A DNA stretch of 61,599 nucleotides from IMG/VR virus record IMGVR_UViG_3300027908_000007; one strand, given 5' to 3'. The notes beneath the pieces were generated by a model. It was not told where the DNA came from and searched no databases. It saw nothing but the letters and a program-made list of their open reading frames with translations. The stretch is from a virus. Shown here piece by piece: positions 2,100 to 35,563 of this stretch (within the stretch, counting starts at the first letter, position 1; each line of letters starts with the position of its first letter). The translations under genes were made by a program, and so were the position numbers.

Positions 2100-3306
2100 C
2101 TTTCTCCCTTTCTTTACGTTCTCGCTTGATCTCCTTGAACCGTTGATACGCATCTGATTTCGGCTGAGTCTGACCTAGACCCTTGCACCAGTAGTCATTC
2201 CTCAAGAGCACCTTGCATAGCCTTCGCCAAGACGGTGCCCAGCACTTTGCTTCAAGCTCTGGCGGGGCTTCCTCTGGGATTTCTTTGTAGCCGCGATTGT
2301 GCCACCCGAAAATGAACTTCTTGAACCGAACCGTGTAGTGATCTCGCGTCTTCTTGGGCATCGTCTGGAGGAGTAGGTTGCAGAAGCTCTTCCAGGTATG
2401 CCCTTCAGGTTTACTGATCTTGTTGTAGCCGTTGACGTTTCCCGTCTCTTCGATGTAGAGCGATCCCGAATTAGCTCCGTTGACCCTTGAAACCAGCTTA
2501 AACCACGTATGTGGTTCAAGGATGTGATAGAGCCACAGTCCACGTCTCTGGTCATCTCCGAAGGGCTGGCAGAGCCTTTGTTGGCTTAGCTTCACTCCTG
2601 CCATGTGCATCTTGTCGTAGATGCGATTGTGCGGCCTATCGGGATATTGAGCGTGGAATCTCCAAACATCCTGAACGAGCCAATCGTAGATCGGATAGAA
2701 GTTGTAGGTTTCCGCCACGATCTTGGTTGTCCAGCGGTGTCCCTGGAAGGTTAGATCCTTTTTTTCCCAGGTAGCTACGGCACAATACCGATGCAAGCTC
2801 TCCTGTGCTCGAATGCCGATGAAGCCAGCACAAGGGTTGCCCTGCCCGTACCACTCCCCGAAAAGAACGATGAACTCTTCAAATTCCATTTCAGGTAGGC
2901 AAAACGGATAGTCTTCGACGTTCTTGCATCCTTCTGGTTTGTCCCGAATCCAGAGTTCCTTTTTAGTCTCATCCCAGCACGTCCATCGTGGTTCGTAGTT
3001 CGTGACCGCGTTTCTCAGGAGCATCGGGACACAGATCCAGTGTTGCTCTATATTGTCGCGGTAGAGATTGAACATCTCCTGAACGTGCGTAATCGTGTCG
3101 GCGTATTGTGCCTCAAAGTCGATAAACATCACGGCAACCTTGCGTCCCCTGGCAATGGCCGCTTCCATGACCAAATGCAGCATGACGCTACTATCCTTGC
3201 CTCCCGAGAAGGCACAGTAGATTCGCTCGAAATTATCGAACGCCACGGCGATTCTCCGGCGAGCGGCAGCCAGTACGTCCAAGTCGCGATAGTGCTTGAT
3301 TCCCAT
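1981..3306 (-). CDS. PP-loop ATPase, PAPS-reductase-like (IbrA/DndC-like) with a long C-terminal domain
   Basis: SGGKDS PP-loop motif near the N-terminus and 441 aa. Sits 1 nt downstream of a ParB-like gene, the classic IbrB/IbrA arrangement. Confidence 0.8.
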   Translation of the reverse strand: MGIKHYRDLDVLAAARRRIAVAFDNFERIYCAFSGGKDSSVMLHLVMEAAIARGRKVAVMFIDFEAQYADTITHVQEMFNLYRDNIEQHWICVPMLLRNAVTNYEPRWTCWDETKKELWIRDKPEGCKNVEDYPFCLPEMEFEEFIVLFGEWYGQGNPCAGFIGIRAQESLHRYCAVATWEKKDLTFQGHRWTTKIVAETYNFYPIYDWLVQDVWRFHAQYPDRPHNRIYDKMHMAGVKLSQQRLCQPFGDDQRRGLWLYHILEPHTWFKLVSRVNGANSGSLYIEETGNVNGYNKISKPEGHTWKSFCNLLLQTMPKKTRDHYTVRFKKFIFGWHNRGYKEIPEEAPPELEAKCWAPSWRRLCKVLLRNDYWCKGLGQTQPKSDAYQRFKEIKRERKEREKDEREATVSLHVDKPDPVEDRLPVGSYRWESLFEMPQYSD

Positions 3307-3307
3307 G

Positions 3308-4474
3308 TCAATAAATATCCGATTGCCGGTCGTAAGAATAAGCTTCCGCCATCGTCACTTCAGGTCGTCCGTTAGCGACGTTCCATTTGTTCAAATAGAC
3401 CAGAGCCATCTCGTCGGCTGCGGTTCTTTGTTCCTTATCCAAGAGAGAAAACCCGCTTCGGAAGTTAGACGGAACCCCAGTGGCGTAGCACATGGCAGCC
3501 TGACCTAGCCACGCAATCTTGTTCATCGCCACATTGGTAAGGTAGTGTTCGCATGAATGCTTCCATTCGGTTATGACGTGGCCCAAGGCGTCTGCGAACC
3601 TAGGCAGGTCGGCAAGGAACTCGCGATAGGCTTCTTCGCACTCCGTCTTGTTCATGCCTTCCTTGGAGCTGTTGTAAAACCCCGCCGCATAACATTCCCA
3701 CTTTTCGTAGGTGTGAAAGACCCTGCCTTCGTCGCTCGTATTGACCGTGCGGAACTTAGTGGCTTCCTCTCCATAGGTGGAAATGTCATCGGTCAATTCC
3801 TCGAAGTCCGATTCGTTCACTTCTCCTTCGACATCCCACGACTTCGAGAACTCCTGATCCTGAAACAGATCGGCCAGACCGGTAATCTGGCATAGTCTCA
3901 GAACCTCATCCTGATCCATGCCTAGTTCGCGGCAGATGCGATCATCGGACCAATTCCTTCTCTTTAGTTCGATGACGATATCGGACATTGCCTCAACCTT
4001 GTGCTTGCCTCTGGCTCGATTGTGGCGAATCGTGGAGGCAACGCGGTCGCTCTTGTCCAAGCGGTCAGCACGGATGATCGTGATCGGCAGGTATCCTTTC
4101 ACCCTCTCTCGGACTTCAGGACATTCCTTGCCGACGCGATTCCTATGGAACCCATCGACGACTTCAAAGGACTCTCCATCCTTCCACGCCACGATGGGTT
4201 GAGTAAAACCGTCAGAAATCACGGAATGTTCCAGTAGCTTCATCTCTGGAGGCGCCACGGAATTGGGGTTATAGGCGTTACCGTGAACCTGATCGGCAGG
4301 AACCCAGATCACGCAATCGACCGGCTCCTGTGAGAAAGGGCTGAGTTCGTGAAGACGCATCCGCACGGAGTTTATCGCCTCAATCCGTTTCGCCTCTGGC
4401 ATGCTTTCGAGCTTGGCAAAGAACGGCTCAAGGTAACTGTCGGTCGTGCATTTGGTTTTGCACTTAACTGTCAT
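3308..4474 (-). CDS. ParB N-terminal-domain protein (IbrB/DndB-like) with an uncharacterised C-terminal domain
   Basis: Motifs VVDGFHRNRVG and IRHNRARG typical of ParB/Srx-fold nuclease-like domains. GGGAGGAAGG RBS before ATG 4474. Confidence 0.8.
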   Translation of the reverse strand: MTVKCKTKCTTDSYLEPFFAKLESMPEAKRIEAINSVRMRLHELSPFSQEPVDCVIWVPADQVHGNAYNPNSVAPPEMKLLEHSVISDGFTQPIVAWKDGESFEVVDGFHRNRVGKECPEVRERVKGYLPITIIRADRLDKSDRVASTIRHNRARGKHKVEAMSDIVIELKRRNWSDDRICRELGMDQDEVLRLCQITGLADLFQDQEFSKSWDVEGEVNESDFEELTDDISTYGEEATKFRTVNTSDEGRVFHTYEKWECYAAGFYNSSKEGMNKTECEEAYREFLADLPRFADALGHVITEWKHSCEHYLTNVAMNKIAWLGQAAMCYATGVPSNFRSGFSLLDKEQRTAADEMALVYLNKWNVANGRPEVTMAEAYSYDRQSDIY

Positions 4475-6986: not shown

Positions 6987-7128
6987 GGGCCGCAAGCTCT
7001 TCGGATGAGCTTCGGTTCCTTTAGCGGGGAATCGGTCCGCTACCAAGTAGGAAGCATTCTAGACCTTCCGAAGAGTGGTGGAAAACGCCTTCCTAGGCGT
7101 GGATCGGGTTCGACTCCCGAGCGGTCCA
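6987..7128 (+). ncRNA. tRNA-like structured RNA (142 nt) with G3:U70 and A73 and a non-canonical middle section
   Basis: Acceptor GGGCCGC (6987-6993) pairs with GCGGTCC (7121-7127), giving G3:U70. D-arm 6996-7010 (GCTC/TTCGGAT/GAGC), T-arm 7104-7120 (TCGGG/TTCGACT/CCCGA), discriminator A7128. Bases 7011-7103 hold three hairpins instead of one anticodon arm. Confidence 0.4.
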
Positions 7129-7325
7129 ATGCCTTCTTAAATGGGTCTAACCCATTCCTTGCCAGGTGTCCTCCTCTGGCATGTAAGGCAATGGCGGATG
7201 GTTCTGCTTGAGTACCGGATCTCTAAGGCAAGGAACTGAAACCCGGAGCGGATGGAAACTCCGCATGCCAATGGCCGTTCGACTCGGCCAAGCAGACTTG
7301 TTTTCAACCCAACGGAGTAACCCCA

Positions 7326-18793: not shown

Positions 18794-18804
18794 TGGCGAA
18801 CGGT

Positions 18805-18913
18805 TCCCCTGTAGATCAATTGGCAGATCACGGAGAAAGGCCGCTTACACCGGCTGAGTAAACGGGCTGACGGCAAACGTCGGCATTGGTGAGTTCGAGT
18901 CCACCCAGGGGAA
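18805..18913 (+). ncRNA. oversized tRNA-like RNA (109 nt); possible anticodon loop CTTACAC (UAC)
   Basis: Acceptor TCCCCTG (18805-18811) pairs with CAGGGGA (18906-18912). U8A9, D-arm GATC/AATTGGCA/GATC, hairpin 18839-18855 with a 7-nt loop, and a 7-bp GCAAA-loop hairpin at 18866-18884. The T-arm 18888-18905 needs a bulged A18892. Confidence 0.35.
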
Positions 18914-18916
18914 ATC

Positions 18917-18990
18917 GCCTACGTAGGCCAATTGGTAGAGTCGTCCGCTTGAGGGGCGGAATGTTGCTGGTTCGAATCCAGCCGTAGGCA
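18917..18990 (+). tRNA. tRNA, anticodon GAG (Leu by anticodon; class-I body with a 5-nt variable loop)
   Basis: 74 nt. Acceptor GCCTACG/CGTAGGC, anticodon arm TCCGC-TTGAGGG-GCGGA (GAG at 18951-18953), T-arm GCTGG-TTCGAAT-CCAGC, A73, no encoded CCA. Confidence 0.8.
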
Positions 18991-18993
18991 ATG

Positions 18994-19065
18994 GGGCACG
19001 TAGACCAATGCAGAGTCAACAGGCTTAAAACCTGTCCAGTGTCGGTTCAAGTCCGACCGTGCTCA
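18994..19065 (+). tRNA. tRNA, anticodon UAA (Leu by anticodon; class-I body)
   Basis: 72 nt. Acceptor GGGCACG/CGTGCTC, anticodon arm ACAGG-CTTAAAA-CCTGT (TAA at 19026-19028), T-arm GTCGG-TTCAAGT-CCGAC, A73. Confidence 0.8.
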
Positions 19066-19066
19066 A

Positions 19067-19139
19067 GCCGCTGTAGGCCAATGGCAGAGCCGACAGTTTT
19101 AGAAGCTGTTGGATGAGGGTTCAAATCCCTCTGGCGGCA
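19067..19139 (+). tRNA. tRNA, anticodon UAG (Leu by anticodon; class-I body)
   Basis: 73 nt. Acceptor GCCGCTG/TGGCGGC (two G:U pairs), anticodon arm ACAGT-TTTAGAA-GCTGT (TAG at 19100-19102), T-arm GAGGG-TTCAAAT-CCCTC, A73. Confidence 0.75.
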
Positions 19140-19142
19140 ATG

Positions 19143-19216
19143 GCTCAGGTATCCCAACTGGCAGAGGAGCTACGTTCAGAACGTAGTTGTTGCAGGTTCG
19201 ATTCCTGTCCTGAGCA
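19143..19216 (+). tRNA. tRNA, anticodon CAG (Leu by anticodon; class-I body)
   Basis: 74 nt. Acceptor GCTCAGG/CCTGAGC, anticodon arm CTACG-TTCAGAA-CGTAG (CAG at 19177-19179), T-arm GCAGG-TTCGATT-CCTGT, A73. Confidence 0.8.
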
Positions 19217-19221
19217 CTGAA

Positions 19222-19295
19222 GGCCAGCTAGGCTAATTGGTAACGCCGCGATGCTCAAAACATCGTGAATTTCGGTTCGAGTCCGAAGCTGGCTA
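19222..19295 (+). tRNA. tRNA, anticodon CAA (Leu by anticodon; class-I body)
   Basis: 74 nt. Acceptor GGCCAGC/GCTGGCT, anticodon arm CGATG-CTCAAAA-CATCG (CAA at 19256-19258), T-arm TTCGG-TTCGAGT-CCGAA, A73. Confidence 0.8.
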
Positions 19296-19297
19296 AT

Positions 19298-19398
19298 CCA
19301 CGACAAGTTCCGGGGGTGTAGTTCAAATGGCTGAACGCTGCGTCTTGGGCGCGGAATTGCGGGTTCGAATCCCGTCGTGAACCCAGAGCTTGTCGTGG
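19298..19398 (+). ncRNA. tRNA-like core (19312-19383) without acceptor pairing, enclosed by a 13-bp external stem
   Basis: The D-arm GTTC/AAATGGCT/GAAC, the arm CTGCG-TCTTGGG-CGCGG (C at position 33) and the T-arm GCGGG-TTCGAAT-CCCGT all fold. But 5' GGGGGTG cannot pair with 3' CGTGAAC. CCACGACAAGTTC (19298-19310) pairs with GAGCTTGTCGTGG (19386-19398). Confidence 0.4.
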
Positions 19399-19417
19399 TT
19401 AATTCAAAGGTGATACG

Positions 19418-19651
19418 ATGATCGGCGGCATCCCCCACAACGGCAAAGGACCGGCGATGGTCGAGATTCCCGAGTTTATTCACGCTTGCAGCCAATTCGG
19501 GGACGGCTACTTGTTTCCGCCAGAGGCACGCGATGCTATGCTCAAGGGCGAAGTAAAGCGGCTCAAGGTGTTCAGTATGGTTCGCGGCCCGCAAGGTGAA
19601 CTTATCGAACAGGAACGCATCGTGGACTTCGAGAAAGGCGAGACGCTGTGA
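19418..19651 (+). CDS. hypothetical protein
   Basis: 77-aa ORF right after the tRNA array; GTGA junction to the next gene. Confidence 0.55.
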   Translation: MIGGIPHNGKGPAMVEIPEFIHACSQFGDGYLFPPEARDAMLKGEVKRLKVFSMVRGPQGELIEQERIVDFEKGETL

Positions 19652-20280
19652 GCAATGATCTTTACGCCACGCTCGGAGTCAGCCGCAAGGCACGCAAGGC
19701 CACGATTGTGAAAGCGTTCCGCCGTCTGGCGATGAAGCATCACCCAGACCGTGGAGGAGATCGTGCCGAGTTCGAGAAGATCGAAGCCGCTTACTCGATT
19801 CTAGGAGACGACGCCAAACGAAAGCGTTACGATGAGACAGGCGAAGTCGATGGACCTGCCCAGAATATTCTAGCTGACGTCATGCAAGTGCTAGGACCGT
19901 GCTACCAAGACGTGCTGAAGTCTATAATCGAATCAGGCAGGTCTCCAGAACATACCGATGTCTGCAAGATGATGCGAGACGCCATCGGTAACAAGATCAG
20001 CGAGATCAACCGAGAGATGGCCAAGCCAAAGAGGGTGCTGGCATCTTACCAGAAGCTTCTGGGGAGATGGTCGGCAAAGGATCAGCCGAATTTGATGGAT
20101 GGTCTGACGCGACAGATGGCAGATGCTCTGCGGGACCAGATAAAGCAGATGCAAGCGTTTGCGGACAGGAACAAGCAAGCATTAGAGTTCCTGAAGGCAT
20201 TCAGCTTCAAGTTCGATCCGCAAGAGATGCCACGCAGCATGAACGGGTTCGTGAGGCTCGGGCAGTGGACGACGGTTTGA
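19648..20280 (+). CDS. J-domain (DnaJ-like) co-chaperone protein
   Basis: DLYATLGVSRKA...AFRRLAMKHHPDRGGD...AYSILGDDAKRKRYD, a J domain with the HPD motif. It has no DnaJ Gly/Phe or zinc region. Confidence 0.85.
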   Translation: MSNDLYATLGVSRKARKATIVKAFRRLAMKHHPDRGGDRAEFEKIEAAYSILGDDAKRKRYDETGEVDGPAQNILADVMQVLGPCYQDVLKSIIESGRSPEHTDVCKMMRDAIGNKISEINREMAKPKRVLASYQKLLGRWSAKDQPNLMDGLTRQMADALRDQIKQMQAFADRNKQALEFLKAFSFKFDPQEMPRSMNGFVRLGQWTTV

Positions 20281-20313
20281 CATAACCCAAGGCAACAGCG
20301 TAGGTTGAACGAG

Positions 20314-20691
20314 ATGATTTACTTCGTTACCGGAAGACACGACCCCAAAAGCCTAATCAAAATCGGTTACGTTAAAGGAAGCCTTGCCAAAAGGATAAGC
20401 GACATGCAAACCGGCAATCCTTATCGCATAGTTCCTTTGCTGATCGTGGATGGAGAAATCAAGGACGAGAAGGAATTGCAAAGGTCATTTTGTGGAGCGA
20501 GGTATCGAGGGGAATGGTTTAAGCCGGCCCCGGAGTTGATAAAATTCATTCGTGAAACCGCTGGAGAATGGATAGAAAAAGAGATAGTCTCGGCTTCGCA
20601 AGATGAACCCAGGATTGAGTATCTGGCGAAAACCCTAGGATGGGAACCTGAAGAAGTTCGCTCTGGTCTTTTGGCACTTCAAAACCGATAA
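20314..20691 (+). CDS. T5orf172/MUG113-type (GIY-YIG-like) domain protein
   Basis: IYFV...IKIGY...RISDMQTGNPYRI...E..LQRSF...RYRGEWF pattern. ATG 20314 within the TTG-initiated ORF 20305..20691. Confidence 0.6.
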   Translation: MIYFVTGRHDPKSLIKIGYVKGSLAKRISDMQTGNPYRIVPLLIVDGEIKDEKELQRSFCGARYRGEWFKPAPELIKFIRETAGEWIEKEIVSASQDEPRIEYLAKTLGWEPEEVRSGLLALQNR

Positions 20692-20705: not shown

Positions 20706-21131
20706 ATGTCGAGAACCCAGCAATACGCCGACGACGAGATTCTTGAGGCCTTGCAGCTAACCAAGGGCAAGGTATACGATGCTGCCGACGTTATCGGCTG
20801 TTGTGCCGACACGATTTACGAACGGGCCAAATCCTGTCCAGCCATCCTCACGGCCATGAAGCACGCCAGGGGGAAGTTTCTCGACAAGTGCGAAGGCAAG
20901 CTTGAGGAAGCGGTTGATGCTGGCGAGCAATGGGCGATCAACCTTTCCCTGAAGACGTTGGGCCGCGAGCGTGGCTATTGGGACAAGACAGAGCAACAGC
21001 ACAGCGGTTCCGTCGAGATCAAGACGGTCACTACCGTTCGCCCGTCTACCGCCAAGCCTCTTGACGCTAATGGCTTTCTGGCCAGACAATCCCTAAATGG
21101 AACAAGCAACGGAACAAACGGCCACGGTTGA
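20706..21131 (+). CDS. terminase small subunit candidate
   Basis: N-terminal HTH-like segment and WAINLSLKTLGRERGYW motif, immediately upstream of the large terminase. Confidence 0.55.
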   Translation: MSRTQQYADDEILEALQLTKGKVYDAADVIGCCADTIYERAKSCPAILTAMKHARGKFLDKCEGKLEEAVDAGEQWAINLSLKTLGRERGYWDKTEQQHSGSVEIKTVTTVRPSTAKPLDANGFLARQSLNGTSNGTNGHG

Positions 21132-22374
21132 GCCATTCTACGTTTACCTCCCCAATGGCGACGTTAGGATCAATCTCCACGAAGGGCAGGATGAAGCCGT
21201 CCATTGCCCCGAGAGGTTCATTCTCTTGCTCGCTGGTCGCCAATCAGGCAAGACCTGCACCGGCCCCCTCTGGCTACACAGGGAAATCATGAGGTGTGGT
21301 CCGGGGGACTACCTTTGCGTAGCTCCGCAATTCTCCCTGATGAACAAGAAGGTCTTGCCTGAGTTCATCCGCTACTTCGAGACGATCTACAATCTCGGCA
21401 CCTATCGCTACACCGACCGAATCTTCCAATTCCACGACAAAGAAACCAAAGTCTTTTTCGGGCATGGCGACGATCCTGAGTCTCTCGAATCGGCCACGGC
21501 TAAAGCTGCGTGGCTAGACGAGTGCGGCCAGAAGAGATTCCGCATGTACTCCTGGGAGGCCATCCGGGGACGTCTTGCCTTGCATCGCGGTCGTGTTCTG
21601 ATGACGACGACGCCTTACGACTTGGGATGGCTCAAGAGCGAGATCTACGACCGCTGCCCGCGACCAGGAAATAAGGGAGAGCCAGACTATCGGCTGATTA
21701 ACTTCGATAGCCTGATGAACCCGGCATTCTCGCGGGAGGAATACGAAGACCTGCGAAAGAGCTTGCCTGGCTGGAGATTCCGAATGTTCTACCAAGGTCA
21801 GTTCGAGCGACCGGCCGGGATGATCTACGATTGCTTCGACGAGAAGTTCAACAAATGCCCGCGTTTCCAGATACCTTCAGACTGGAAGCGGTACATGGGC
21901 AATGACTTCGGGGCAGTGAACACGGCAGCCGTATACTTAGCTGAAGATCCAGGGACAAAGATCCTTTACGCCTATCGGGAGTACTGGCACGGAGGCAGAA
22001 CAGCCAAGCAGCACACGGCGGCGATGCTTGACAGGGAGCTGGGCTTGCCGTTGGTTTGTGTAGGCGGTGCCCAGAGCGAAGAGAACTGGCGAGACGAGTT
22101 CAAGGCGGCTGGATTGCCTATTAGGGAGCCGGATATCAAGGAAGTGGAGGTCGGAATAAATCGGGTTTACGGTGAATTCGAGTCGCATTCTCTGGTAATA
22201 TTCGATGATCTAAAGCACACGCTAGAGAACGTGATGAGCTATTCCAGGGAACTAGACGACTTCGGCCAGCCGACAGAGAAGATCGAGGACAAGGAGAAAT
22301 ATCATCTTGCGGACGCCCTTCGCTATGTGGTCGGTTACTTGCGTGGCAAACCTAAACGAGTCTGGGTGAGGTGA
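21097..22374 (+). CDS. terminase large subunit
   Basis: Walker A LLAGRQSGKT, Walker B AWLDECG, C-terminal RNaseH-like nuclease region (GNDFGAVNTAA ... DALRY). Confidence 0.85.
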   Translation: MEQATEQTATVEPFYVYLPNGDVRINLHEGQDEAVHCPERFILLLAGRQSGKTCTGPLWLHREIMRCGPGDYLCVAPQFSLMNKKVLPEFIRYFETIYNLGTYRYTDRIFQFHDKETKVFFGHGDDPESLESATAKAAWLDECGQKRFRMYSWEAIRGRLALHRGRVLMTTTPYDLGWLKSEIYDRCPRPGNKGEPDYRLINFDSLMNPAFSREEYEDLRKSLPGWRFRMFYQGQFERPAGMIYDCFDEKFNKCPRFQIPSDWKRYMGNDFGAVNTAAVYLAEDPGTKILYAYREYWHGGRTAKQHTAAMLDRELGLPLVCVGGAQSEENWRDEFKAAGLPIREPDIKEVEVGINRVYGEFESHSLVIFDDLKHTLENVMSYSRELDDFGQPTEKIEDKEKYHLADALRYVVGYLRGKPKRVWVR

Positions 22375-22936: not shown

Positions 22937-23152
22937 ATGAATGTAGTCGAGTTGATAGCCGATCAAGACGATTGTGCTTTCGACCAACCTTGCCGGTTCG
23001 GCCGTCGCGTGGAATGCCACGCCGTCTACTGCCACAACACGACATGGAAAGACGCTCCAAGGAAGTGTCATCGGTCAGCACAAGATCCAGAGTTCAGGCA
23101 CGAAGCCTGTCCAGGATTCGAGACCAATCCCGCAGCAGAGGCTAACCCATGA
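22937..23152 (+). CDS. small Cys/His-rich protein (71 aa)
   Basis: C-terminal part of ORF 22388..23152, starting at ATG 22937. ATGA-coupled to the portal. Confidence 0.45.
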   Translation: MNVVELIADQDDCAFDQPCRFGRRVECHAVYCHNTTWKDAPRKCHRSAQDPEFRHEACPGFETNPAAEANP

Positions 23153-25440
23153 ACTACATCCCTCGCAGTGCCGCCCGCTCCATGATCCGAGCCGAGCAGA
23201 AACGCCAGGTACGCTCTGCCATCAGAGGCACAGCCACCGGCGAGAAGATCATGGGAGCCCTGATGCCCGGCAGGGGCTACGCCTTCCCTGGGGGATGGTC
23301 GCAGGACCGCATAGCCCAAGTCCAGCACATGAAGGACTGGACAGGAGTTTGCATTGACAAGCTGGCCTCTCTCTGTGCTCAGCTAGTGCCTAACTGTGCA
23401 GCTGTAGTGGTGGGCAATCCCAAGAGTAGGCAGAAGGGCTATAGCCCCTATCGGCAGCAGCTTGACGGTCTGGCCACGGGCGTCCGCAAGATTCAGCGGT
23501 ATGACTGTGCTGGATATAGTTTCTCGAATCATCCCTATCACGCCAAGGCCCTGGGGGTAATCAAGCCAGAGGAAGAGCTAGAACCGCTTGCGTCCCGGCA
23601 TCCGTTACGCAGGCTAATAGAGTCTCCCAACGATTGGGACACGCAGTACGATCACGACTATGAACTGGTGATGTTTCAGTATCTCTGTGGTGTGGCCTAC
23701 GATTGGGCAGTGCCAGAATCGTACCACTGGGAGGATCACAAGGACTTCAGCACGCCGGTAGCCGATGGGCCGTTTGGTGATTATCCGCAAGAGTTGTGGT
23801 GCATACCGTCTCACTGGGTATGGCCGCGTAGTTCTGGTGGATCACTCGTCAGCCCAGAGCATCCTAATGCTGACAAGCTAATCGAGTACTACGAGATACG
23901 TCCTTGGGGTGGATTGGGCACGGCAGGGGTTATCAGAATCCCGCCAGAGCAGATTGTGCGGTACGCCTTCAAGTCGCCTATTAACAAGGTTGACGGCTGG
24001 GCACGCACGCAGATGGGGGCAGCATGGATCGACACGGACGATAGTATAGCTACCTGCCAGCGGTCGATGATGACCAACGGGATCTATCCCAGCTTTTGGC
24101 TGGAGATGGGCGAAGGATTCTCGGATCTGACGGACGACCAGGTAGACCGGGTAGAGGCGAAGATCTATGCCAAGCTCGGAGGGGAGAATCGGTTTGGGAG
24201 GCCGTTCATATCCTCTCAGGGGACCAAGCCTCATCCGCTGGTGTTTCCGCCGAATCAGTATGCCTTTGCTGACTCAGGGGACCAGTCGCGTAACAGGATC
24301 ATCGCCCTGTTTGGTCTTAACCTTCCAGTGCTGGGCATGAGCGAATCCCAGACGTTTGGGTCGGTGCTGGCAAACCTCATGTCGGTGTCGGTGCATACGC
24401 TGAAGCCGCTACTAACGGCGAATGGGCAGACCAAGACGAAGTTCCTGGCACGGTACTTCTCGACGCCACAGCGGCCGCTGAAGGTTTGGTACGACGACCC
24501 GACGCCGATAGATCCGCAGCAATTGAATCTTGATATTTCATGCGACGTGGCGTCCGGGTCGATAGTTCCGAATGAAATAAGGCTTCTGAGAGGACGCCCG
24601 CCATACGAGCACGGAGGAGACGACCCAATTCTGCCGATGGGCAGCATTCCCATGCCCCTCAACACTGGCCAAGACCTCAGCGACCTCGCGGAACTGGTGC
24701 CCTTGCTCGGGAGGCAAGAGAACCCGGCCGCAGAGGAAGAAGAAGCCGAAGCTGGGCTGGGGAGTCCGCAGGTGGAGGAGCCGAATGGCGGGCCGTCTAA
24801 ACGATGGGGAGGCAGGCTCAAGGGATTCAACGAATCCGACCACCCGCGAGGCCAACCGGACAATGCCGGCCAGTTTGGTCCCGCCTCTGGGGTTCCAGAG
24901 TCTTCGAGCGGCAAGCGTCAACCCAAGGAAGACGATCCGGTTAACGGATACTTGGGAGCCTTCAAGGAAGACAAGACGACGGAACCCAAGGAGATGGTCA
25001 AGGAAGCCCGCCAGGCCAATGCTGAACTACGCGACGAAGATTCCAAGTTTCGCATCGTCCCGGATGGCAAGGGAGGCTGGGATGCCAAGCACGTCAACGA
25101 CATTATCGACGACTTCGGTTCTAAGATATGGACTATTCGCGTCCATCCCTTGACAGGTATGCCCGATGCCGGAGATCCAGATTACTTCAAGGACATGGAC
25201 AATCTGGCAGGAGACAGGAGCAGTCAGTCGTATGTTCAAGCGTTCAATGATCCAAACGCGACTAAGGCCACTCAAGAAGACGCAGACAACGCCAATGCCG
25301 AACTAGCCGAAGAAGGCAGCAAGTACAAGCTGGTATTTAGCGACGAGTACGACCTCTGGATAGCAGAACCAGCCAAGCCACAGAAGTCCTACGGCCCTCG
25401 CTCCGCTCTACCCAAGTTCAGCACCAACGGAGTACACTGA
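23149..25440 (+). CDS. portal protein with a ~250-aa C-terminal extension
   Basis: 763-aa ORF downstream of the terminase in canonical position. Its C-terminal third is acidic/low-complexity and carries the DHPRGQPDNAGQFGPASGVP motif. Portal identity rests on position and size only. Confidence 0.65.
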   Translation: MNYIPRSAARSMIRAEQKRQVRSAIRGTATGEKIMGALMPGRGYAFPGGWSQDRIAQVQHMKDWTGVCIDKLASLCAQLVPNCAAVVVGNPKSRQKGYSPYRQQLDGLATGVRKIQRYDCAGYSFSNHPYHAKALGVIKPEEELEPLASRHPLRRLIESPNDWDTQYDHDYELVMFQYLCGVAYDWAVPESYHWEDHKDFSTPVADGPFGDYPQELWCIPSHWVWPRSSGGSLVSPEHPNADKLIEYYEIRPWGGLGTAGVIRIPPEQIVRYAFKSPINKVDGWARTQMGAAWIDTDDSIATCQRSMMTNGIYPSFWLEMGEGFSDLTDDQVDRVEAKIYAKLGGENRFGRPFISSQGTKPHPLVFPPNQYAFADSGDQSRNRIIALFGLNLPVLGMSESQTFGSVLANLMSVSVHTLKPLLTANGQTKTKFLARYFSTPQRPLKVWYDDPTPIDPQQLNLDISCDVASGSIVPNEIRLLRGRPPYEHGGDDPILPMGSIPMPLNTGQDLSDLAELVPLLGRQENPAAEEEEAEAGLGSPQVEEPNGGPSKRWGGRLKGFNESDHPRGQPDNAGQFGPASGVPESSSGKRQPKEDDPVNGYLGAFKEDKTTEPKEMVKEARQANAELRDEDSKFRIVPDGKGGWDAKHVNDIIDDFGSKIWTIRVHPLTGMPDAGDPDYFKDMDNLAGDRSSQSYVQAFNDPNATKATQEDADNANAELAEEGSKYKLVFSDEYDLWIAEPAKPQKSYGPRSALPKFSTNGVH

Positions 25441-29668: not shown

Positions 29669-29893
29669 TTGAGCATGGGACAATCCATCGATAAACCCGA
29701 CAAGTCAGACTGGTCGGCTCTGGAGACGGACTGTCTCCAGTCAGTCAAGCCTGTCGTTACGTCTACGCCAGATGAGCCAGTGTTGCCTCTAGGCGAGAAG
29801 ATAGTCATGATTGCAGCTACCCGGAGAGATGGGCCTATGCCGGGCTTGCCTCAGACTGCATCGGACGTGCATACGCAGCCGGGGGCGGAATGA
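29669..29893 (+). CDS. hypothetical protein
   Basis: TTG 29669 or ATG 29675; ATGA junction to the protease fusion. Confidence 0.4.
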   Translation: MSMGQSIDKPDKSDWSALETDCLQSVKPVVTSTPDEPVLPLGEKIVMIAATRRDGPMPGLPQTASDVHTQPGAE

Positions 29894-32766
29894 GCCTATC
29901 CGCCCTACATGCTGACATCGCGGCCCGCTATGACCGGCTGAACCAGAGCATCAGCAAGGGTAAGATCAAGCCTGAGCAGGCGGCGGTGTTGTCGGATCGG
30001 TATGCGTGGCCGGTCAGCAAAGACGGCACGCTGGGGATGGGCCAGCATGCGTCAGCCGAGCGGAAGTACATCGACAGCGTAGAGGCGTCCTGCCCGTTCA
30101 TTATCTCGACTCAAGACGAGGATAGCGACGGTGATATTGTTGTCTCCCGTGGAGCTGACCTTAGTCGCTTTGCTCTCAATCCGGTCGTGCTACTTGGTCA
30201 CGGCTCGTACCAAATGCCTATCGGAACAGCCAGGGCAAAGGACGGAACAATCTCCGTTTGGCCCGAAGAGAATCGCGTTAGAGCTAACTGCTATTTCGAT
30301 ATGCCTGATCCTGATTCTGCTGCGGTCTATGGCAAGGTCGAACGGGGCATTCTGAACGCCACTTCCATTTCGTTCTTGCCTCTTCAGGCTCACAAGCGAG
30401 AATACGACAAGGCTCACCATGACGGAATGATGCCGCCGGGGTGGCTGTTCCAGCGGTGGCAGCTCACTGAGTTTTCGATTGTGAGTGTGCCCGCGAATGC
30501 CGGTGCCGTACGGGACTGGCTAGACTCCGACAAGGACTTGAGCCCCAAGCTTCAGAAGGCCCTACAACCGTTCGCGGCCGTCGCTAAAGGCTGCTTTAAT
30601 GGCTACTGTCCGTGTCCGCCATGCGATAAAGCTTGGGACGAAGCCGACCATCCAAGAGGGCAGCCGGAGAATGCTGGGCAGTTTGGTCCGGCGAGTGGAG
30701 TGCCAAGCACGGATAGTGAATCGGCAAAGGTTGCATCCGAAGACTATAAAAATAACGGTACCAAGGCTAAGGCTTTCAAGGAGTGGTTTGGAGACAGCAA
30801 GGTAGTAGATAAAAAAGGCAAGCCTCTTGCGGTCTACCACGGAGCCCAATCAGATTTTGATGAGTTTGATTCTGCAAAAGCCGGATCGAACGCTTCTTTT
30901 GCAGGCAACGGTTTCTATTTTTCCGAGAACGAGAAGATAGCCAGATCCTACTCGTTTGAAGACGGAAAGATCATAGAAGCGTACCTGAAGGTGAAAAATC
31001 CTTTCGACTTTAAAGCCTCGGTTGGCGAAGATGGCCTGAGAGAATTGGCCAAGAAGGTGTCTTCCCTGTTTCAAAAAGAAGGCGTCACCAAAGATCAGCT
31101 TGAGCAAAAATTGCTGGGGGCATTTGGCGTCGACGGCAGTGGCAAAGCAGAGGCAATTAGCGGTTACTTCGTACACAATTCGATAGCCTCTGTCATCGGG
31201 AGCAAGAACGTAAATTCCGTCATCGAAAAGCTCGGCCACGATGGCATAAAGTATAGCTCCATGAATGCCGCAGGAACGCCAAGAGCAAGCAGCAAAGAAA
31301 AAGACTTAGGATTAGTTTGGGTCGCTTTCGGCCCTAAGCAGATAAAATCGGTTGACAACGATGGGACTTTTGACCCTGATAGCCCTAACATCCGAAAGAA
31401 AGCCAAATACGAAAGTCACCTAGGCCAGTTCCTTCATGCCCAGAGAGTCAAAGACATGACAAAGAAACAGAACGCGGCCGTGCTAACCTCTGGCCTGCCG
31501 GGTGCGAAAGCCTGCCACAAAAGCTACTGCGCCTGCAAATCGTGCAAGAGCGTTTGCAAGTCCAGTGTAAATGGCCACTTCATCACGTATTGTTCGTGCG
31601 GGAAAGTCATTGCTCAATGCCGATGCACCAGCAAGGACAAGATCAAGAAAACGATTACGGACGGGTGTTCAGAGTGTAAGCGCTCAAAGGGTCTTCCAGA
31701 GGAGGAAGACGCCGTATCTGGTGCCGAAGCGTCTGGAACGAATCCCGAGCGGCACGAGCATGAGGAAGAAGGGGCAGAGCACGAGAAGACGTTGCAAGAA
31801 TCGGTTGCCGCGAAGATGCCCAAGCTGATGGAGTGCGGCTACACCGAACCGCAGGCGATGTGTCTGGCTGCTCATTTGCACGGCAAGGGTCTGGAAGGCG
31901 AAGACATCACAGGACACGAAGAAGCGGCCAAAGCTCTTGGCTACACCAAGAAGGACGACATGGGTGGCGAAGAGTCCATGTCGCTGAAGAGCTTCGTGAA
32001 GTCCGTCAAGAAAGAAAGCGACTCGGAAGCCCTCGATGAGTCACACGAAGGGGAAACCGAATCCGCCAGCGAAGGCGAAGAAGCGGACGAAGAAGAGGAA
32101 GAGAAGCCGCAATACAAGCCATCCGCCAAGTGCCTTGGTGCGATGCACAACCATATGAAGCTTGCTCACGACTTCTTGAGCAAGGAAATCCCGGTGATGG
32201 ATCATCCCCAGCTATCCAAGGCCATGACTGCCCACGTCAAGGACTTGGAGGGCCACATGGAGAACTACAAGGATCTCGCAGGCAAGTACCATCCCGATCT
32301 CGACTTCGAGAAGATGTGCAAGGATCTCGGTGGCGAAGGTGGAGAAGCCGAAGAAGAATCAAACGAGACTGGTGCTGGCGAGTCCAGCGAAGCATCCTCG
32401 GAAGAAGGAGACGGCCGCAAGACGGACGACGAAAGCCCCGCCGAGAAGGTGCAAGAATACCAGCATCCCAAGGGAGCCAAACGTCGCGTCCAGAAGGCCA
32501 TGATGGATCACGGCTGCGTCAAGGAAGCTGCGGACTACATGGCGGAAGCGTCCAGAGATGCTACAATGCCGCGAACGCACAAAGCGGCGATGTCTCACCA
32601 CTGCTCAGCCCTTACGGGATACTGCAAGGCGATAGAGACAACGCCAGCGGAGCCAGTACGGGAAGGCGACCCGAATGAGGTGCCGCCGGAAGCTATGAAG
32701 AAGGTTGCCGAGCGGTTCGACCAGTTTGCCGATTTGATCTTCCTGAAGACGGGGCAACGGTTCTAA
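29890..32766 (+). CDS. prohead protease (HK97 gp4/S78-like) fused to an ART-like domain, a Cys-rich segment and an acidic scaffold-like C-terminal half
   Basis: The N-terminus reads FIISTQDEDSDGDIV...VVLLGHG...ATSISF...SIVSVPAN. Residues ~295-500 read WFGDSKVVDKKGKPLAVYHGAQSDFDEF...GFYFSENEKIARSY...AYLKVKNP...KQIKSVDNDGTFD. These are followed by a CxxC cluster and E/D-rich coiled regions. Confidence 0.75.
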   Translation: MSLSALHADIAARYDRLNQSISKGKIKPEQAAVLSDRYAWPVSKDGTLGMGQHASAERKYIDSVEASCPFIISTQDEDSDGDIVVSRGADLSRFALNPVVLLGHGSYQMPIGTARAKDGTISVWPEENRVRANCYFDMPDPDSAAVYGKVERGILNATSISFLPLQAHKREYDKAHHDGMMPPGWLFQRWQLTEFSIVSVPANAGAVRDWLDSDKDLSPKLQKALQPFAAVAKGCFNGYCPCPPCDKAWDEADHPRGQPENAGQFGPASGVPSTDSESAKVASEDYKNNGTKAKAFKEWFGDSKVVDKKGKPLAVYHGAQSDFDEFDSAKAGSNASFAGNGFYFSENEKIARSYSFEDGKIIEAYLKVKNPFDFKASVGEDGLRELAKKVSSLFQKEGVTKDQLEQKLLGAFGVDGSGKAEAISGYFVHNSIASVIGSKNVNSVIEKLGHDGIKYSSMNAAGTPRASSKEKDLGLVWVAFGPKQIKSVDNDGTFDPDSPNIRKKAKYESHLGQFLHAQRVKDMTKKQNAAVLTSGLPGAKACHKSYCACKSCKSVCKSSVNGHFITYCSCGKVIAQCRCTSKDKIKKTITDGCSECKRSKGLPEEEDAVSGAEASGTNPERHEHEEEGAEHEKTLQESVAAKMPKLMECGYTEPQAMCLAAHLHGKGLEGEDITGHEEAAKALGYTKKDDMGGEESMSLKSFVKSVKKESDSEALDESHEGETESASEGEEADEEEEEKPQYKPSAKCLGAMHNHMKLAHDFLSKEIPVMDHPQLSKAMTAHVKDLEGHMENYKDLAGKYHPDLDFEKMCKDLGGEGGEAEEESNETGAGESSEASSEEGDGRKTDDESPAEKVQEYQHPKGAKRRVQKAMMDHGCVKEAADYMAEASRDATMPRTHKAAMSHHCSALTGYCKAIETTPAEPVREGDPNEVPPEAMKKVAERFDQFADLIFLKTGQRF

Positions 32767-32957
32767 TGCCGGAAGTTATTGGCTATGGAACGCAGAGGTC
32801 TACAAAGCTTGAGCAGACGGTTCAGGCTTTTCGGGACCAGCTCGTTCAGGCTCAGAAAGAAAAGACTACTGGCCAGATCACGGCTCTGGTAGACTTGGGC
32901 GAAGGCGGGATCAATAGCAGTAAAATCGGAGTGGTCAAAAACGTCCTAACTAAATAG
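32766..32957 (+). CDS. hypothetical protein
   Basis: 63-aa ORF with a TAATG junction. Confidence 0.5.
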   Translation: MPEVIGYGTQRSTKLEQTVQAFRDQLVQAQKEKTTGQITALVDLGEGGINSSKIGVVKNVLTK

Positions 32958-33010
32958 TGGTCCCGTCAAAGCGGGAGTTCATCTCAGCCCTCCGGGGAAT
33001 TGAGCATGAG

Positions 33011-33044
33011 CCTGCGGGAGAAATCTCGCGGGCTTTTTCTTTTC
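33011..33044 (+). terminator. terminator-like or RNA-stabilising hairpin just upstream of the capsid gene
   Basis: CCTGCGGGA (33011-33019), GAAA loop, TCTCGCGGG (33024-32): 9 bp including 2 G:U pairs. Followed by CTTTTTCTTTT. Confidence 0.45.
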
Positions 33045-33055
33045 CTGGAGAACAA

Positions 33056-34474
33056 ATGGCAGCATTTTCCAATCAGACGGCGGTCAAGGACGTAGGCAAA
33101 GACCTCATGGAGAGGTTCGACAAGATCGAGAAGTTCTTTACCGACAAGGCTGAAAAGGAAGTCAAGCAAGCTCCGCGAATGGCCATGTCCAAGTTCGTTC
33201 CGGCGGGGACCGATCCGGGATGGGATCAGGATCACATTCAACGGCTCTCGAAGTCTTACGATCCAGGCAACATCGAACACCTGATGCGGATGAGCAAAGG
33301 TCGCGTCAGCCCGCATGGTTCCGCTATCAAGAAGATGTGCCTCGCTGGGATGCCGACTTATAAGTCTCACTACGAGCAGACGTACGGTGAGCTGTCTCCT
33401 GAAGATCGGGCATACGGTAACGAGCAGTTTGAGCGAGACTGCAAGTTTGTGCCGTGGTACTCGCTGGCCAACAAATCCATCCGCAGCGGGACGGGGGAGA
33501 TCCACAAGGCCAGCAACATGGCCGAGAACTCAGGCATCCTCGGTGGCTATGCCGTTCCTCCTGATTTCAGGAATCAGGTCCAGACGATTCAGGAAGAAGA
33601 GTCTACGATTCTGCCTCGCTGCATGCGGATTCCGCAGACGACCAAGACATCGACTTGGCCCATGCTGGACATCTTCACCAACTACGGAACCGGCAAAAGC
33701 CCTTACGAAGCGAACGTCTTCCAGTCGTGGCAGCCTGAAGCGGCCCTCATCAATCAAACCAATACCCAACTTCGCCAGTTCAATCTAAGCAACTGGGATC
33801 TCGTCACCTATATCGTCATCAGCAACGACCTGTTGCAAGACAACAGCGTTGGCCTGGACACGATCATCACGACCCTGTTGGCGAGTTCGGCAGGCTTCTA
33901 CATCGAATACGCCTTGATGAATGGCCTAGGCAGCAATAGTAGCATGCCCCTTGGTGTGCTTAATGCTCCTTCGACCATCGGCATCGACCGGCAGACCAGC
34001 AACACAATCACAATCTCTGACGTTCTCACGATGTACTCGCGGCTCCAGAGCCGGTCGTGGGATAGCTTCTGCTGGCACGCTCACCAGAGCACGATTCCGG
34101 CCCTTGCGGCACTCGTTAGCAACGCCACCACTGGTCAGTTCGCCTTGCTCGACCCGAACGGCCAGAACGGCATGGGGCCGTTGGCTGGGCGGATGGCTGA
34201 CAAGCTGTTCGGTGGTGCTCCGCTCTACTTCACGCAGACCTGCCAGCAACTAGGCTCGACGGGAGACTTGCGGGCCAACGACTGGAAGCACTACTTCGTA
34301 GGCGAGCGAATGGGGCTTCAGGTTGCTGTCAGCGACCAGTTCTTGTTCACGAATAATCAGATTGTGATTCGGTCGGTTCAAAGATTGGGCGGAGCGCCGT
34401 GGACCCCGACGACCATAACCGATGCACAAGGGTTCACTATTAGCCCATTTGTTTTGCTCGACGTACATTCCTAG
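33056..34474 (+). CDS. major capsid protein, HK97 fold, with a ~170-aa N-terminal (delta-like) domain
   Basis: ATG 33056 follows GGAGAA and the hairpin. Contains GGYAVPPDF, and the C-terminus FTNNQIVIRSVQRLGG is typical of HK97-type MCPs. GTG 32957 is rejected as the start. Confidence 0.75.
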   Translation: MAAFSNQTAVKDVGKDLMERFDKIEKFFTDKAEKEVKQAPRMAMSKFVPAGTDPGWDQDHIQRLSKSYDPGNIEHLMRMSKGRVSPHGSAIKKMCLAGMPTYKSHYEQTYGELSPEDRAYGNEQFERDCKFVPWYSLANKSIRSGTGEIHKASNMAENSGILGGYAVPPDFRNQVQTIQEEESTILPRCMRIPQTTKTSTWPMLDIFTNYGTGKSPYEANVFQSWQPEAALINQTNTQLRQFNLSNWDLVTYIVISNDLLQDNSVGLDTIITTLLASSAGFYIEYALMNGLGSNSSMPLGVLNAPSTIGIDRQTSNTITISDVLTMYSRLQSRSWDSFCWHAHQSTIPALAALVSNATTGQFALLDPNGQNGMGPLAGRMADKLFGGAPLYFTQTCQQLGSTGDLRANDWKHYFVGERMGLQVAVSDQFLFTNNQIVIRSVQRLGGAPWTPTTITDAQGFTISPFVLLDVHS

Positions 34475-34489
34475 GCCACATAAGGACTT

Positions 34490-35563
34490 ATGCCAACATC
34501 GCTACGCGACCACATGCGACGAAGGAAAGCCTCCATCCCGAAAGGATGGACTGGCTTCCTGTCGGCATTGCGTAATAGGCAGCACAAGCAGTTAGCGGAC
34601 ATGGGATCGGTTTTGGTATCGAAAGCATCGGTCCAGAACGAGTCGAGTGGTATCACAGGCGGCTATTCGGTGCCTCCCGATTTCAACCTGATGATCGCGA
34701 CGACCTACGAAGAGGAGTCGTTCTGGTATCAGCGGGCAACCGTGGTGCCGATGCTTAGCCTTGAGACGGCCTTGCCGATTCCTAATGCTTCGGCTCAGAC
34801 GGCTGGTACGGCTCCGTGGTTTGGCGGGATGGATCTAGGCTGGGTCGGGACGCCTATCGCCACTAACACGACGTTCTCGCAAGTCAGGCTGACCGCCAAG
34901 AGCTTGACCGGTGTCATCACGGTATCTAACGACCTCGCGGCGGACATGGGTCCGGGTGGCGACGAGTTCCTCTTTACCATCTTCGCTCGCGGGGCGGCGT
35001 ACTACGAAGAGCTAGCGTTCCTTCAGGGGACTGGAGTAGTCGCGGGAGGGTCTAGTCCTCAGGCTCAGCCTCAGGGGGTAATCAATGCTCCTGGAACGGT
35101 GGTTATTACTCGCAAGACCACGAACCAGATCAATCAGCAGGACGTTAATGGCCTTGCCGCCGCTCTTGCTCCGAAGTCGTGGACGAAGGCGATATGGGTG
35201 TGCAGTCCGACTGCTCTAGCTCAGGTTATGGCCATTACCGGATACGTTCCGAACCAGCAAAATGGCTTCGATACCGACCACGTATCGGCAGCCGGATCGC
35301 TCGCAGGCAGACCGTTGTTTGTGACCGACAAGGTTCCAGCCCTTGGGACGCAAGGTGATCTTGGATTGTACGATCCAAGCCAGTACGTGATCGGTGATAG
35401 GGCTGAACTGATTGTGCAAGCCAGCACAGAGAACAAGTTCACAAACAATCAGACGGTATATCGGATCTGGAGACGCCTGGACGGTACTCCGATCTATGGC
35501 AAGCCAATTACCCTAACGGACGGAGCTACGCAAGTAAGTTCGTTCGTCACTCTGTCCAAATAA
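34490..35563 (+). CDS. second HK97-fold capsid protein paralog
   Basis: GGYSVPPDF...EEES... and the C-terminal FTNNQTVYRIWRRLDG align with the preceding gene product. Confidence 0.7.
   Translation: MPTSLRDHMRRRKASIPKGWTGFLSALRNRQHKQLADMGSVLVSKASVQNESSGITGGYSVPPDFNLMIATTYEEESFWYQRATVVPMLSLETALPIPNASAQTAGTAPWFGGMDLGWVGTPIATNTTFSQVRLTAKSLTGVITVSNDLAADMGPGGDEFLFTIFARGAAYYEELAFLQGTGVVAGGSSPQAQPQGVINAPGTVVITRKTTNQINQQDVNGLAAALAPKSWTKAIWVCSPTALAQVMAITGYVPNQQNGFDTDHVSAAGSLAGRPLFVTDKVPALGTQGDLGLYDPSQYVIGDRAELIVQASTENKFTNNQTVYRIWRRLDGTPIYGKPITLTDGATQVSSFVTLSK

Follow-up and report, generated by a model that had tools for sequence, protein, structure and literature searches.

The viral record IMGVR_UViG_3300027908_000007, a stretch of 61,599 nucleotides (nt) from a tailed phage that we refer to as the window, carries at positions 18917 to 19295 five tandem tRNA genes whose anticodons are the five leucine anticodons GAG, UAA, UAG, CAG, and CAA. 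We consider it probable that these are genuine leucine-accepting type I tRNAs drawn from a mobile family, charged by the host, and supplying the phage with a leucine-decoding set of its own; taken jointly, the observations are best explained in this way. A tRNA-Leu family with a short variable loop is widespread among phages and among tRNA arrays that spread by horizontal transfer, and the array described here is an addition to this existing, barely described family. The short-armed type of tRNA-Leu is thus not new, and the novelty lies mainly in a phage set that is confined to leucine. A complete five-anticodon leucine set as the only intact tRNAs of a phage is unusual.

A tandem array of five class I leucine tRNAs

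Run over the whole window, ARAGORN called five tRNA-Leu genes, at 18917-18990, 18994-19065, 19067-19139, 19143-19217, and 19222-19295, and the Rfam tRNA model RF00005 matched the same five genes with 53.4 to 58.2 bits (gathering score, 29; E values, 5e-10 to 1e-8). Each match covers model positions 1 to 71, the full length of the cloverleaf, which places all five genes among canonical tRNAs. The initial annotation, made by reading the sequence, had proposed five class I tRNAs with the five leucine anticodons at these positions, and both programs agree with it. The covariance model, which might have set the anticodon loops in another register, reads them in the register that had been claimed, as does ARAGORN. 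The window has no further canonical tRNA.

All five genes lie on the + strand. In order, they are t1, tRNA-Leu(GAG) (18917-18990; 74 nt; variable loop AUGUU; 55.1 bits); t2, tRNA-Leu(UAA) (18994-19065; 72 nt; CCAGU; 53.4 bits); t3, tRNA-Leu(UAG) (19067-19139; 73 nt; UGGAU; 58.2 bits); t4, tRNA-Leu(CAG) (19143-19216, one nucleotide short of the end called by ARAGORN; 74 nt; UUGUU; 54.6 bits); and t5, tRNA-Leu(CAA) (19222-19295; 74 nt; UGAAU; 53.9 bits). They are separated by spacers of 3, 1, 3, and 5 nt, and none of them encodes CCA. The parsed cloverleafs bear out the structural details first read from the sequence: all five have a 7-bp acceptor stem, a 5-bp anticodon stem, a 7-nt anticodon loop with U33 and a purine at position 37 (G37 in t1), a 5-nt variable loop, a canonical T-loop, and A73. 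The D-loops are 7 to 9 nt long, with the G18G19 pair in four of the five.

If anticodons were drawn at random, five distinct leucine anticodons would be found once each with a probability of 5!/45^5, or ~6e-7 by our own arithmetic, and the set is far beyond chance. The five had also been described as one paralog family diversified only at the anticodon. This view does not hold: pairwise identity among them is only 47 to 66%, with the stems differing all along, while identity to tRNAs of other phages reaches 87%. The most divergent of the five is t5, which also has few outside matches.

Probable leucine identity of the tRNA bodies

The identity elements of Escherichia coli tRNA-Leu include A73, U8:A14, and A15:U48, together with other tertiary features (PMC6614811). 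U8, A14, A15, U48, and A73 are present in all five window tRNAs, as expected from the earlier suggestion that the bodies hold leucine determinants. Positions 13 and 22 are unpaired in all five (C13.A22 in t1 to t4, U13.C22 in t5), which leaves a 3-bp D-stem.

The frequency of these features was determined among 1,843 ARAGORN-called tRNAs from the fetched loci and in a second, independent set from the viral scan for 5-nt variable loops described below. In the sampled loci, A73 is present in 94 to 98% of short and 100% of long tRNA-Leu genes, and A15:U48 is present in 91 to 94% of short and 83 to 100% of long tRNA-Leu genes and in 0 to 76% of other isotypes. Among the 1,843 tRNAs, 13:22 is unpaired in 97% of short tRNA-Leu genes, 95% of long ones, and 6 to 47% of most other isotypes, a statistic that is inflated for pattern-selected members because A22 is part of the search pattern. 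The other isotypes of this set retain their own canonical discriminators, and their 13:22 positions are mostly paired. In the independent set, A15:U48, A73, and unpaired 13:22 occur jointly in 89% of short and 72% of long tRNA-Leu genes, with no other isotype above 12%. When t1 to t4 were compared by BLAST with 787 tRNAs, 79 to 95% of the matches were tRNA-Leu. Inspection of the five bodies revealed no G3:U70 or other strong foreign determinant.

The five tRNAs, with their 5-nt loops, lack the long variable arm that marks bacterial tRNA-Leu as class II. In the same loci, 113 of 114 tRNA-Ser genes and 44 of 49 tRNA-Tyr genes are long-armed, and shortening is confined to leucine. Seryl-tRNA synthetase (SerRS) and bacterial tyrosyl-tRNA synthetase (TyrRS) use the long arm, whereas leucyl-tRNA synthetase (LeuRS) does not, and this difference fits the finding that the leucine tRNAs alone are short. 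A precedent exists in Streptomyces coelicolor, where a type I tRNA-Leu(CAA), described as rare, is leucylated by the single LeuRS of that species (ScoLeuRS), which does not require the long arm (PMC6614811). Judged from these features, the window tRNAs are very probably real leucine acceptors and not recoding tRNAs. The initial annotation had left the choice between a streamlined tRNA-Leu set and a set charged with another amino acid; the first of these fares better, while the second is at odds with the leucines of the terminase and J-domain proteins considered below.

A short-armed tRNA-Leu family in phages and cells

When the array was compared by BLAST with cultured phages, the matches were genes already annotated as tRNA-Leu. 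Mycobacterium phage Colt (a Bixzunavirus) has a tRNA-Leu(gag) of 74 nt and a tRNA-Leu(caa) of 75 nt adjoining an 86-nt tRNA-Leu(cag); Rhodococcus phage Trina has a 74-nt tRNA-Leu(taa) adjoining leucine tRNAs of 83 and 86 nt; and a short tRNA-Leu(tag) was called by ARAGORN in Vibrio phage F86. These genes share A73 with the window tRNAs, as well as a D-arm of the CCAAyGGCAGAG type and a variable loop that is short (5 nt in the genes parsed), at 70 to 86% identity, but the short leucine genes of the three phages are one to few within larger tRNA sets. None of the cultured-phage examples examined carries leucine tRNAs only, and none has all five anticodons in the short form. The best outside matches of t2 are a tRNA-Leu(caa) of viral locus L337 (87%) and the Trina tRNA-Leu(taa) (86%); t3 is 85% identical to the F86 gene over 61 nt, and the best full-length match of t4 (77%) is a tRNA-Leu in a tRNA array of Phycisphaerales (L168). 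Further BLAST matches, to annotated tRNA-Leu genes with similar bodies, lie in Vibrio phage 6E35.1a, cluster M mycobacteriophages, Streptomyces phages of ~131 kb, Synechococcus phage S-CREM1, and Ochrobactrum phage vB_OspM_OC.

Viral contigs were scanned with a pattern for the body plan (GGCAGAG-type D-loop with an extra nucleotide, 5-nt variable loop, and canonical T-arm) in which the anticodon was left free. This pattern is fitted exactly by t3 and t4, while t1, t2, and t5 are variants with GGUAGAG, GCAGAG, and GGUAACG, respectively. Among the matches listed, 119 of 124 (96%) have leucine anticodons (TAA, 73; TAG, 21; CAA, 18; CAG, 4; GAG, 2; AAG, 1), and the remaining five, whose D-stems are of the ordinary 4-bp kind, belong to other isotypes that the pattern reads out of register. 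As a lower bound, the exact 5-nt-loop body plan occurs in more than 120 viral contigs. With a sister pattern that has a 6-nt variable loop, leucine anticodons were found in 102 of 122 viral matches (84%), again among the matches listed; this sister form occurs in at least 120 further viral contigs and, across several phyla, in the genomes of more than 100 species.

The scan of the genome collection used only the 6-nt-loop pattern, which t3 and t4 do not fit, and returned at least 120 stretches; the cellular distribution given here is that of the sister form and of other short leucine tRNAs in the same loci. It takes two shapes. A single chromosomal short tRNA-Leu(taa) is found in many Actinomycetota, among them Intrasporangiaceae, Microbacteriaceae, Nocardioides, Pseudonocardia, Mycobacterium, and Streptomyces. 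Closely packed clusters of 20 to 37 tRNAs with short leucine members are found in Cyanobacteria, in Phycisphaerales and Tepidisphaeraceae (Planctomycetota), in Acidobacteriota, in Omnitrophota, and in others, and these match what has been described as "tRNA array units" or "L-arrays", which are transferred horizontally (PMC4758250, PMC8421152, PMC12803027). In the sampled loci, the leucine tRNAs of array units are mostly of the short type.

The initial annotation had treated a short-armed tRNA-Leu as exceptional in bacteria and phages. The S. coelicolor precedent, the phage genes of Colt, Trina, and F86 and the occurrence in over 120 viral contigs, and the cellular sister form with its 6-nt loop all speak to the contrary. 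No description of the viral family was found in the literature searched. The work that named the bacterial type I tRNA-Leu calls the type rare and the Streptomyces LeuRS unique in charging it (PMC6614811); our scans show a wider spread. Similar tRNAs are present in phages of Proteobacteria and Cyanobacteria, and if they are charged in hosts of this kind, the recognition rules of LeuRS are broader than published.

Among known systems, the S. coelicolor type I tRNA-Leu(CAA) (Fan et al. 2019, PMC6614811) resembles the window tRNAs in its leucine anticodon, its 5-nt variable loop, and U8:A14 as an identity element; it coexists with class II tRNA-Leu and is leucylated by a bacterial LeuRS. It differs in being a single chromosomal isoacceptor for which A73 is dispensable, and the likeness described here is one of features. 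Array units, which are dense, co-oriented, and mobile and are found in phages, plasmids, and chromosomes (PMC4758250, PMC5966550, PMC8421152, PMC12803027), resemble the window array in organization. However, an array unit is defined by at least 20 tRNA genes at no fewer than 2 per kb and serves most amino acids, whereas the window has five intact tRNAs for one amino acid and two adjoining relics. Type I tRNA-Leu of animal mitochondria likewise combines a leucine anticodon with a class I body, but its lineage is another one, served by a LeuRS dedicated to it, and the window tRNAs keep canonical bacterial D- and T-loops. ScoLeuRS does not charge human mitochondrial tRNA-Leu(UUR) (PMC6614811).

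Completeness is not peculiar to the window. Among ~240 sampled viral loci, complete short leucine sets were found in L122 (five, in tandem), L289 (five), and L360 (five, four of them in tandem). All of these sets lie inside larger clusters, of 12 to 28 tRNAs with multiple isotypes, and it is in this respect that a complete set restricted to leucine is as unusual as it had first appeared. A phage that carries the leucine set alone offers a clean natural system in which to ask why a phage should bring its own tRNA-Leu and whether the missing arm matters.

Three observations on the wider family were made in passing. Outside Streptomyces, single chromosomal short tRNA-Leu(UAA) genes were found with the 6-nt-loop pattern in Terrabacter, Janibacter, Knoellia, Phycicoccus, Clavibacter, Nocardioides, Pseudonocardia, and other Actinomycetota (loci L143 to L262), a distribution that goes beyond the one published case, the CAA tRNA of S. 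coelicolor. A short tRNA-Leu(taa) and a tRNA-Ile(tat) lie within 8 kb of each other in L144 and L158 (both Streptomyces) and in L230 and L254, once on a 264-kb Streptomyces plasmid; the pair is a two-gene module for TTA and ATA, which are rare codons in high-GC genomes. Finally, a tRNA at ~4141 (+) of IMGVR_UViG_3300020202_000475 (L065) has a leucine-type D-arm (GCCC AACGGCAG AGGC), the anticodon loop CUUUAAA, and the anticodon UUA, and by its sequence it may be an ochre suppressor on a leucine body. Other apparent stop-reading "Leu-body" tRNAs (TTA, TCA, CTA) proved to be ordinary tRNAs in a shifted register.

Origin and possible benefit of a leucine-only set

The window contains four tRNA-like relics, at 18803-18914, 19296-19400, 7033-7128, and 7202-7297, and the first two of these flank the array directly. 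In the 5' relic (18803-18914, +; fold of -40.7 kcal/mol, z = -2.0), the acceptor stem comprises 8 bp, the D-arm is intact, an A is bulged out of the T-arm, and ~35 extra nt in the anticodon/variable region fold as two hairpins. Apart from this insert the relic can be aligned with a viral tRNA-Asn body, and it was called by neither ARAGORN nor Rfam. The 3' relic (19296-19400, +; fold of -48.4 kcal/mol, z = -3.8) gives an Rfam tRNA match of 30.9 bits at 19317-19377, over model positions 6 to 65. It retains a D-arm, an anticodon-like arm (loop UCUUGGG, with C33), and a perfect T-arm, its acceptor stem is broken, and the whole is enclosed by a 13-bp outer helix (CCACGACAAGUUC / GAGCUUGUCGUGG); its similarity is to tRNA in general only. 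The simplest history would be that a larger cluster of mixed tRNAs has eroded and that the block is what survives of it, with one gene selectively retained for each leucine anticodon. Decay on both sides of five intact leucine genes points to selection on the leucine set. No tRNA array was found in the relatives of the phage that a search with the large terminase (TerL) recovered among viral and metagenome contigs, all of which share at most 57% TerL identity with the phage. Since these relatives lack it, the array is a lineage-specific acquisition, an accessory element that was gained recently.

A route from these genes to a functional leucine supply can be proposed from their sequences and from established LeuRS biology. 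The five co-oriented genes, 1 to 5 nt apart, would be transcribed as one precursor, which host RNase P and 3' processing enzymes would cut into separate tRNAs, each then completed by the host CCA-adding enzyme. LeuRS needs neither the anticodon nor the long arm, and the host enzyme would charge the five tRNAs with leucine through A73, U8:A14, A15:U48, and the elbow that the D- and T-loops make. The phage would thereby hold its own complete decoding set for the six leucine codons. The likeliest benefit, which is the weakest step of this account, would be that leucine decoding is sustained even if infection depletes or damages the tRNA-Leu of the host. Both phage tRNAs and tRNA arrays have been discussed as a counter to tRNA depletion (PMC10264068, PMC12803027), and there is general precedent for replacement under tRNA depletion or cleavage (PMC10264068, PMC11555353).

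Codon usage offers less of an explanation. Leucine accounts for 8.1% of the codons of the phage, second only to alanine, and all six leucine codons are used in a balanced way. However, tRNA-less relatives of 54 to 55% GC show the same leucine codon pattern, which makes codon compensation a poor explanation for the array. In our analysis, a replacement pool appears to fit better than a correction of codon usage, which is less likely.

Several points weigh against a host-charged, leucine-accepting replacement set, in addition to the inflation of the 13:22 statistic mentioned above. The D-loop of t2 (AAUGCAG, 7 nt) has a single G where G18G19 is expected. In a comparison with anticodon-masked, home-made hidden Markov models (HMMs), which had moderate held-out accuracy and gave small margins, the profile of class II tRNA-Leu with the arm excised ranked 1, 2, 2, 2, and 7 of 20 for the five bodies; the top non-leucine profiles were inconsistent (Pro, Asn, Lys, Gln), with scores at the generic level. 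Bacterial tRNA-Leu that reads CUN codons usually has G37, the site of m1G37, and A37 is found instead in t3(UAG) and t4(CAG). In the sampled family, A37 occurs in 78 of 102 short CUN-reading leucine tRNAs versus 17 of 32 long ones, which suggests that the modification status of the anticodon loop differs. Regarding charging, E. coli LeuRS is unable to charge the Streptomyces type I tRNA-Leu(CAA), and ScoLeuRS has been described as the sole prokaryotic LeuRS that charges both types of tRNA-Leu (PMC6614811). Given the failure of the E. coli enzyme, charging by an arbitrary host cannot be assumed. Regarding the benefit, Pfam scans of ~60 ORFs (open reading frames) revealed no tRNA-Leu-directed nuclease in the phage, and no anti-phage nuclease specific for tRNA-Leu was found in the literature searched.

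Alternative explanations

A sharper form of the replacement idea is that the array evades attack by its shape: a host or phage nuclease that recognizes the long arm, or anticodon-loop features of tRNA-Leu, would destroy class II tRNA-Leu, and the short copies would escape. We regard this as a tentative possibility of limited likelihood. It would explain the short arm and the leucine-only content together, and the presence of all five anticodons, including those of common codons, suits replacement better than supplementation. Vibrio-type hosts have class II tRNA-Leu of their own, and the short leucine tRNAs in phages of such hosts differ structurally from the host copies. The frequent A37 of short CUN-reading leucine tRNAs, t3 and t4 included, is a change in the anticodon loop such as has been proposed to make tRNAs resistant to nucleases (PMC10264068), and tRNA-cleaving defenses are numerous. 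Altered phage replacements of host tRNAs are likewise known from phage tRNAs acting against retron effectors (PMC11555353) and PARIS/AriB (PMC12409363) and from anticodon-loop variants (PMC10264068). In those cases, however, nuclease and target are defined and resistance lies in the anticodon loop, whereas the window tRNAs differ conspicuously in that the variable arm is missing. A bacterial nuclease that singles out tRNA-Leu by its long arm is not described in the literature searched; the bacterial Schlafen studied there cleaves within the anticodon arm, and no specificity for type II tRNAs is described for it. Evasion of a general nuclease directed at class II tRNAs is made unlikely by the serine and tyrosine tRNAs of the same phage clusters, which are long-armed. 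Moreover, Colt and Trina carry long and short leucine tRNAs together, and many Actinomycetota have on their chromosome a single, ordinary gene for a short tRNA-Leu(UAA), so that a short arm need not be an anti-defense trait.

In a broader version, loss of the arm would be an adaptive disguise, and the parallel short-armed lineage would have been kept because a widespread host or phage shut-off activity destroys class II tRNA-Leu. We think this somewhat less likely still, although much would follow from it: a phage that retains a complete, leucine-only, short-armed set next to decaying tRNAs would mark a host that has an undescribed leucine-tRNA-directed defense, and LeuRS enzymes of many phyla would be able to charge type I tRNA-Leu, an ability now regarded as peculiar to Streptomyces.

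A plain boost of supply is about as doubtful as the disguise. Here, the additional tRNA-Leu would serve fast translation of late genes or a codon match, and the short arm would simply be inherited from the mobile pool. The high leucine content, the use of all six codons, and the position of the array just upstream of the packaging and structural genes are in favor of such a boost, and since mobile tRNA sets normally have the short arm, it would require no special reason. On the other hand, the tRNA-less relatives of equal GC content use leucine codons in the same way, and codon compensation predicts tRNAs for a few host-rare codons, not a full set that includes CAG and GAG. A supply boost also leaves unexplained that alanine, glycine, and serine are used about as often as leucine yet have no tRNA.

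That the array is a near-neutral remnant strikes us as improbable. According to this explanation, a block captured from a larger array, perhaps by way of a homing-endonuclease-like gene, is decaying, and its leucine genes have not yet eroded. Decayed relics on both sides, relatives that lack the array, and the tandem leucine blocks of big arrays (L122, L138, L360), which could be captured whole, are consistent with such a history. So is the MUG113/T5orf172 gene 1 kb downstream, as homing endonucleases or homing-endonuclease-like genes accompany tRNA arrays in phages and bacteria and may mobilize them (PMC8421152). However, none of the five genes is damaged: each retains 7/7 acceptor pairs, a canonical T-loop, and the identity nucleotides. 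Both neighbors are broken, a contrast more like the outcome of selection than of chance. The survivors are, in addition, exactly one copy per leucine anticodon, and their order is unlike that of tandem blocks elsewhere, so that a simple recent en bloc capture is not evident.

Recoding or mistranslation, in which a synthetase other than LeuRS would charge the class I bodies and leucine codons would partly or wholly specify another amino acid, is very improbable, although the bodies lack the long arm, E. coli LeuRS is inactive on the Streptomyces type I tRNA-Leu, and the HMM classifier, with its moderate accuracy, put leucine first for only one of the five. In an alignment of TerL with 18 tRNA-less relatives, leucine is the top aligned residue for each of the six leucine codons (for TTA, it ties with phenylalanine, in only 18 observations), and self-conservation is 0.48 for leucine codons, 0.43 for isoleucine codons, and 0.41 for valine codons. 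CTT, CTC, CTG, and CTA encode four canonical conserved leucines of the J-domain protein. The cognate codons thus fall mainly on leucine in homologs, not on another residue or a stop as for a recoding or suppressor set. The full complement of leucine identity nucleotides in the five tRNAs, the lack of a strong foreign determinant such as G3:U70, and the inconsistency of the top non-leucine isotypes, with their generic scores, argue in the same direction. Annotators and screens for codon reassignment should not take short tRNAs with leucine anticodons as evidence of recoding.

Genomic setting and other observations

By an exact sequence look-up, the window makes up nearly all of a metagenome contig of 61,641 bp (ENA ERZ27314126). 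The array lies in a block of + strand genes in which small orphan ORFs are followed by the array, a 77-amino-acid ORF, a J-domain (DnaJ) protein (19648-20280), the MUG113/T5orf172 (GIY-YIG-like) protein (20305-20691), and the terminase genes. TerL (21097-22374), the portal (23149-25440), and the capsid genes lie downstream of the array; helicase, ParB-like, and PAPS-reductase-like genes lie upstream. Neither a sigma-70-type promoter nor a dedicated terminator was found for the array. Neither a tRNA-processing enzyme nor a synthetase came up in the Pfam scans of ~60 ORFs, and the same holds for tRNA nucleases, RNA ligases, and integrases. The phage has no close cultured relative (portal identity of at most 26%), and almost no protein links were found from it to the flanks of tRNA-array loci. 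The similarity of t4 to the Phycisphaerales array tRNA was considered as a hint to the host and set aside as too weak to use.

Two other roles for the flanking relics were considered and rejected. As attP sites, they would call for an integrase, which the Pfam scans did not find, and they have no close match among the fetched tRNAs. The 3' element is not a YrlA (Y RNA-like) RNA: the Rfam YrlA match, with 21 bits where the gathering score is 69, lies over the true tRNAs, and the order of arms is the natural order of a tRNA.

The remaining two relics, at 7033-7128 and 7202-7297 (+), are tandem tRNA-like elements of ~95 nt, each with an acceptor stem, a hairpin like a long variable arm, and a T-arm of good quality (GGGUUCGACUCCC and GCCGUUCGACUCGGC, respectively), while the D- and anticodon arms are poor. 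ARAGORN reads the first as tRNA-Phe(gaa), or as tRNA-Thr(agt) with an intron if introns are allowed; in Rfam, the two match tRNA-Sec only, at 14 to 15 bits (E values, 4 to 7). They look class II-like, while the intact tRNAs of the phage are all without a long arm. In a relative with 50% TerL identity (IMGVR_UViG_3300009868_000017, L008), ARAGORN calls a 72-nt "tRNA-SeC(tca)" at 1952-2023, ~150 nt upstream of the terminase, which could be a UGA-reading suppressor tRNA.

At 1981-4474 (-), the PAPS-reductase-like gene adjoins a gene with a ParB-like nuclease domain, and a fused glycosyltransferase-sulfotransferase gene is found at 56709-58157 (+); these genes may have DNA- or surface-modification functions. 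Among the structural genes, two adjoining ORFs at 32957-34474 and 34490-35563 (+) both match the major-head-protein family phrog_10, and a 958-amino-acid ORF upstream of this pair, at 29890-32766, matches head-maturation-protease and head-protein families.

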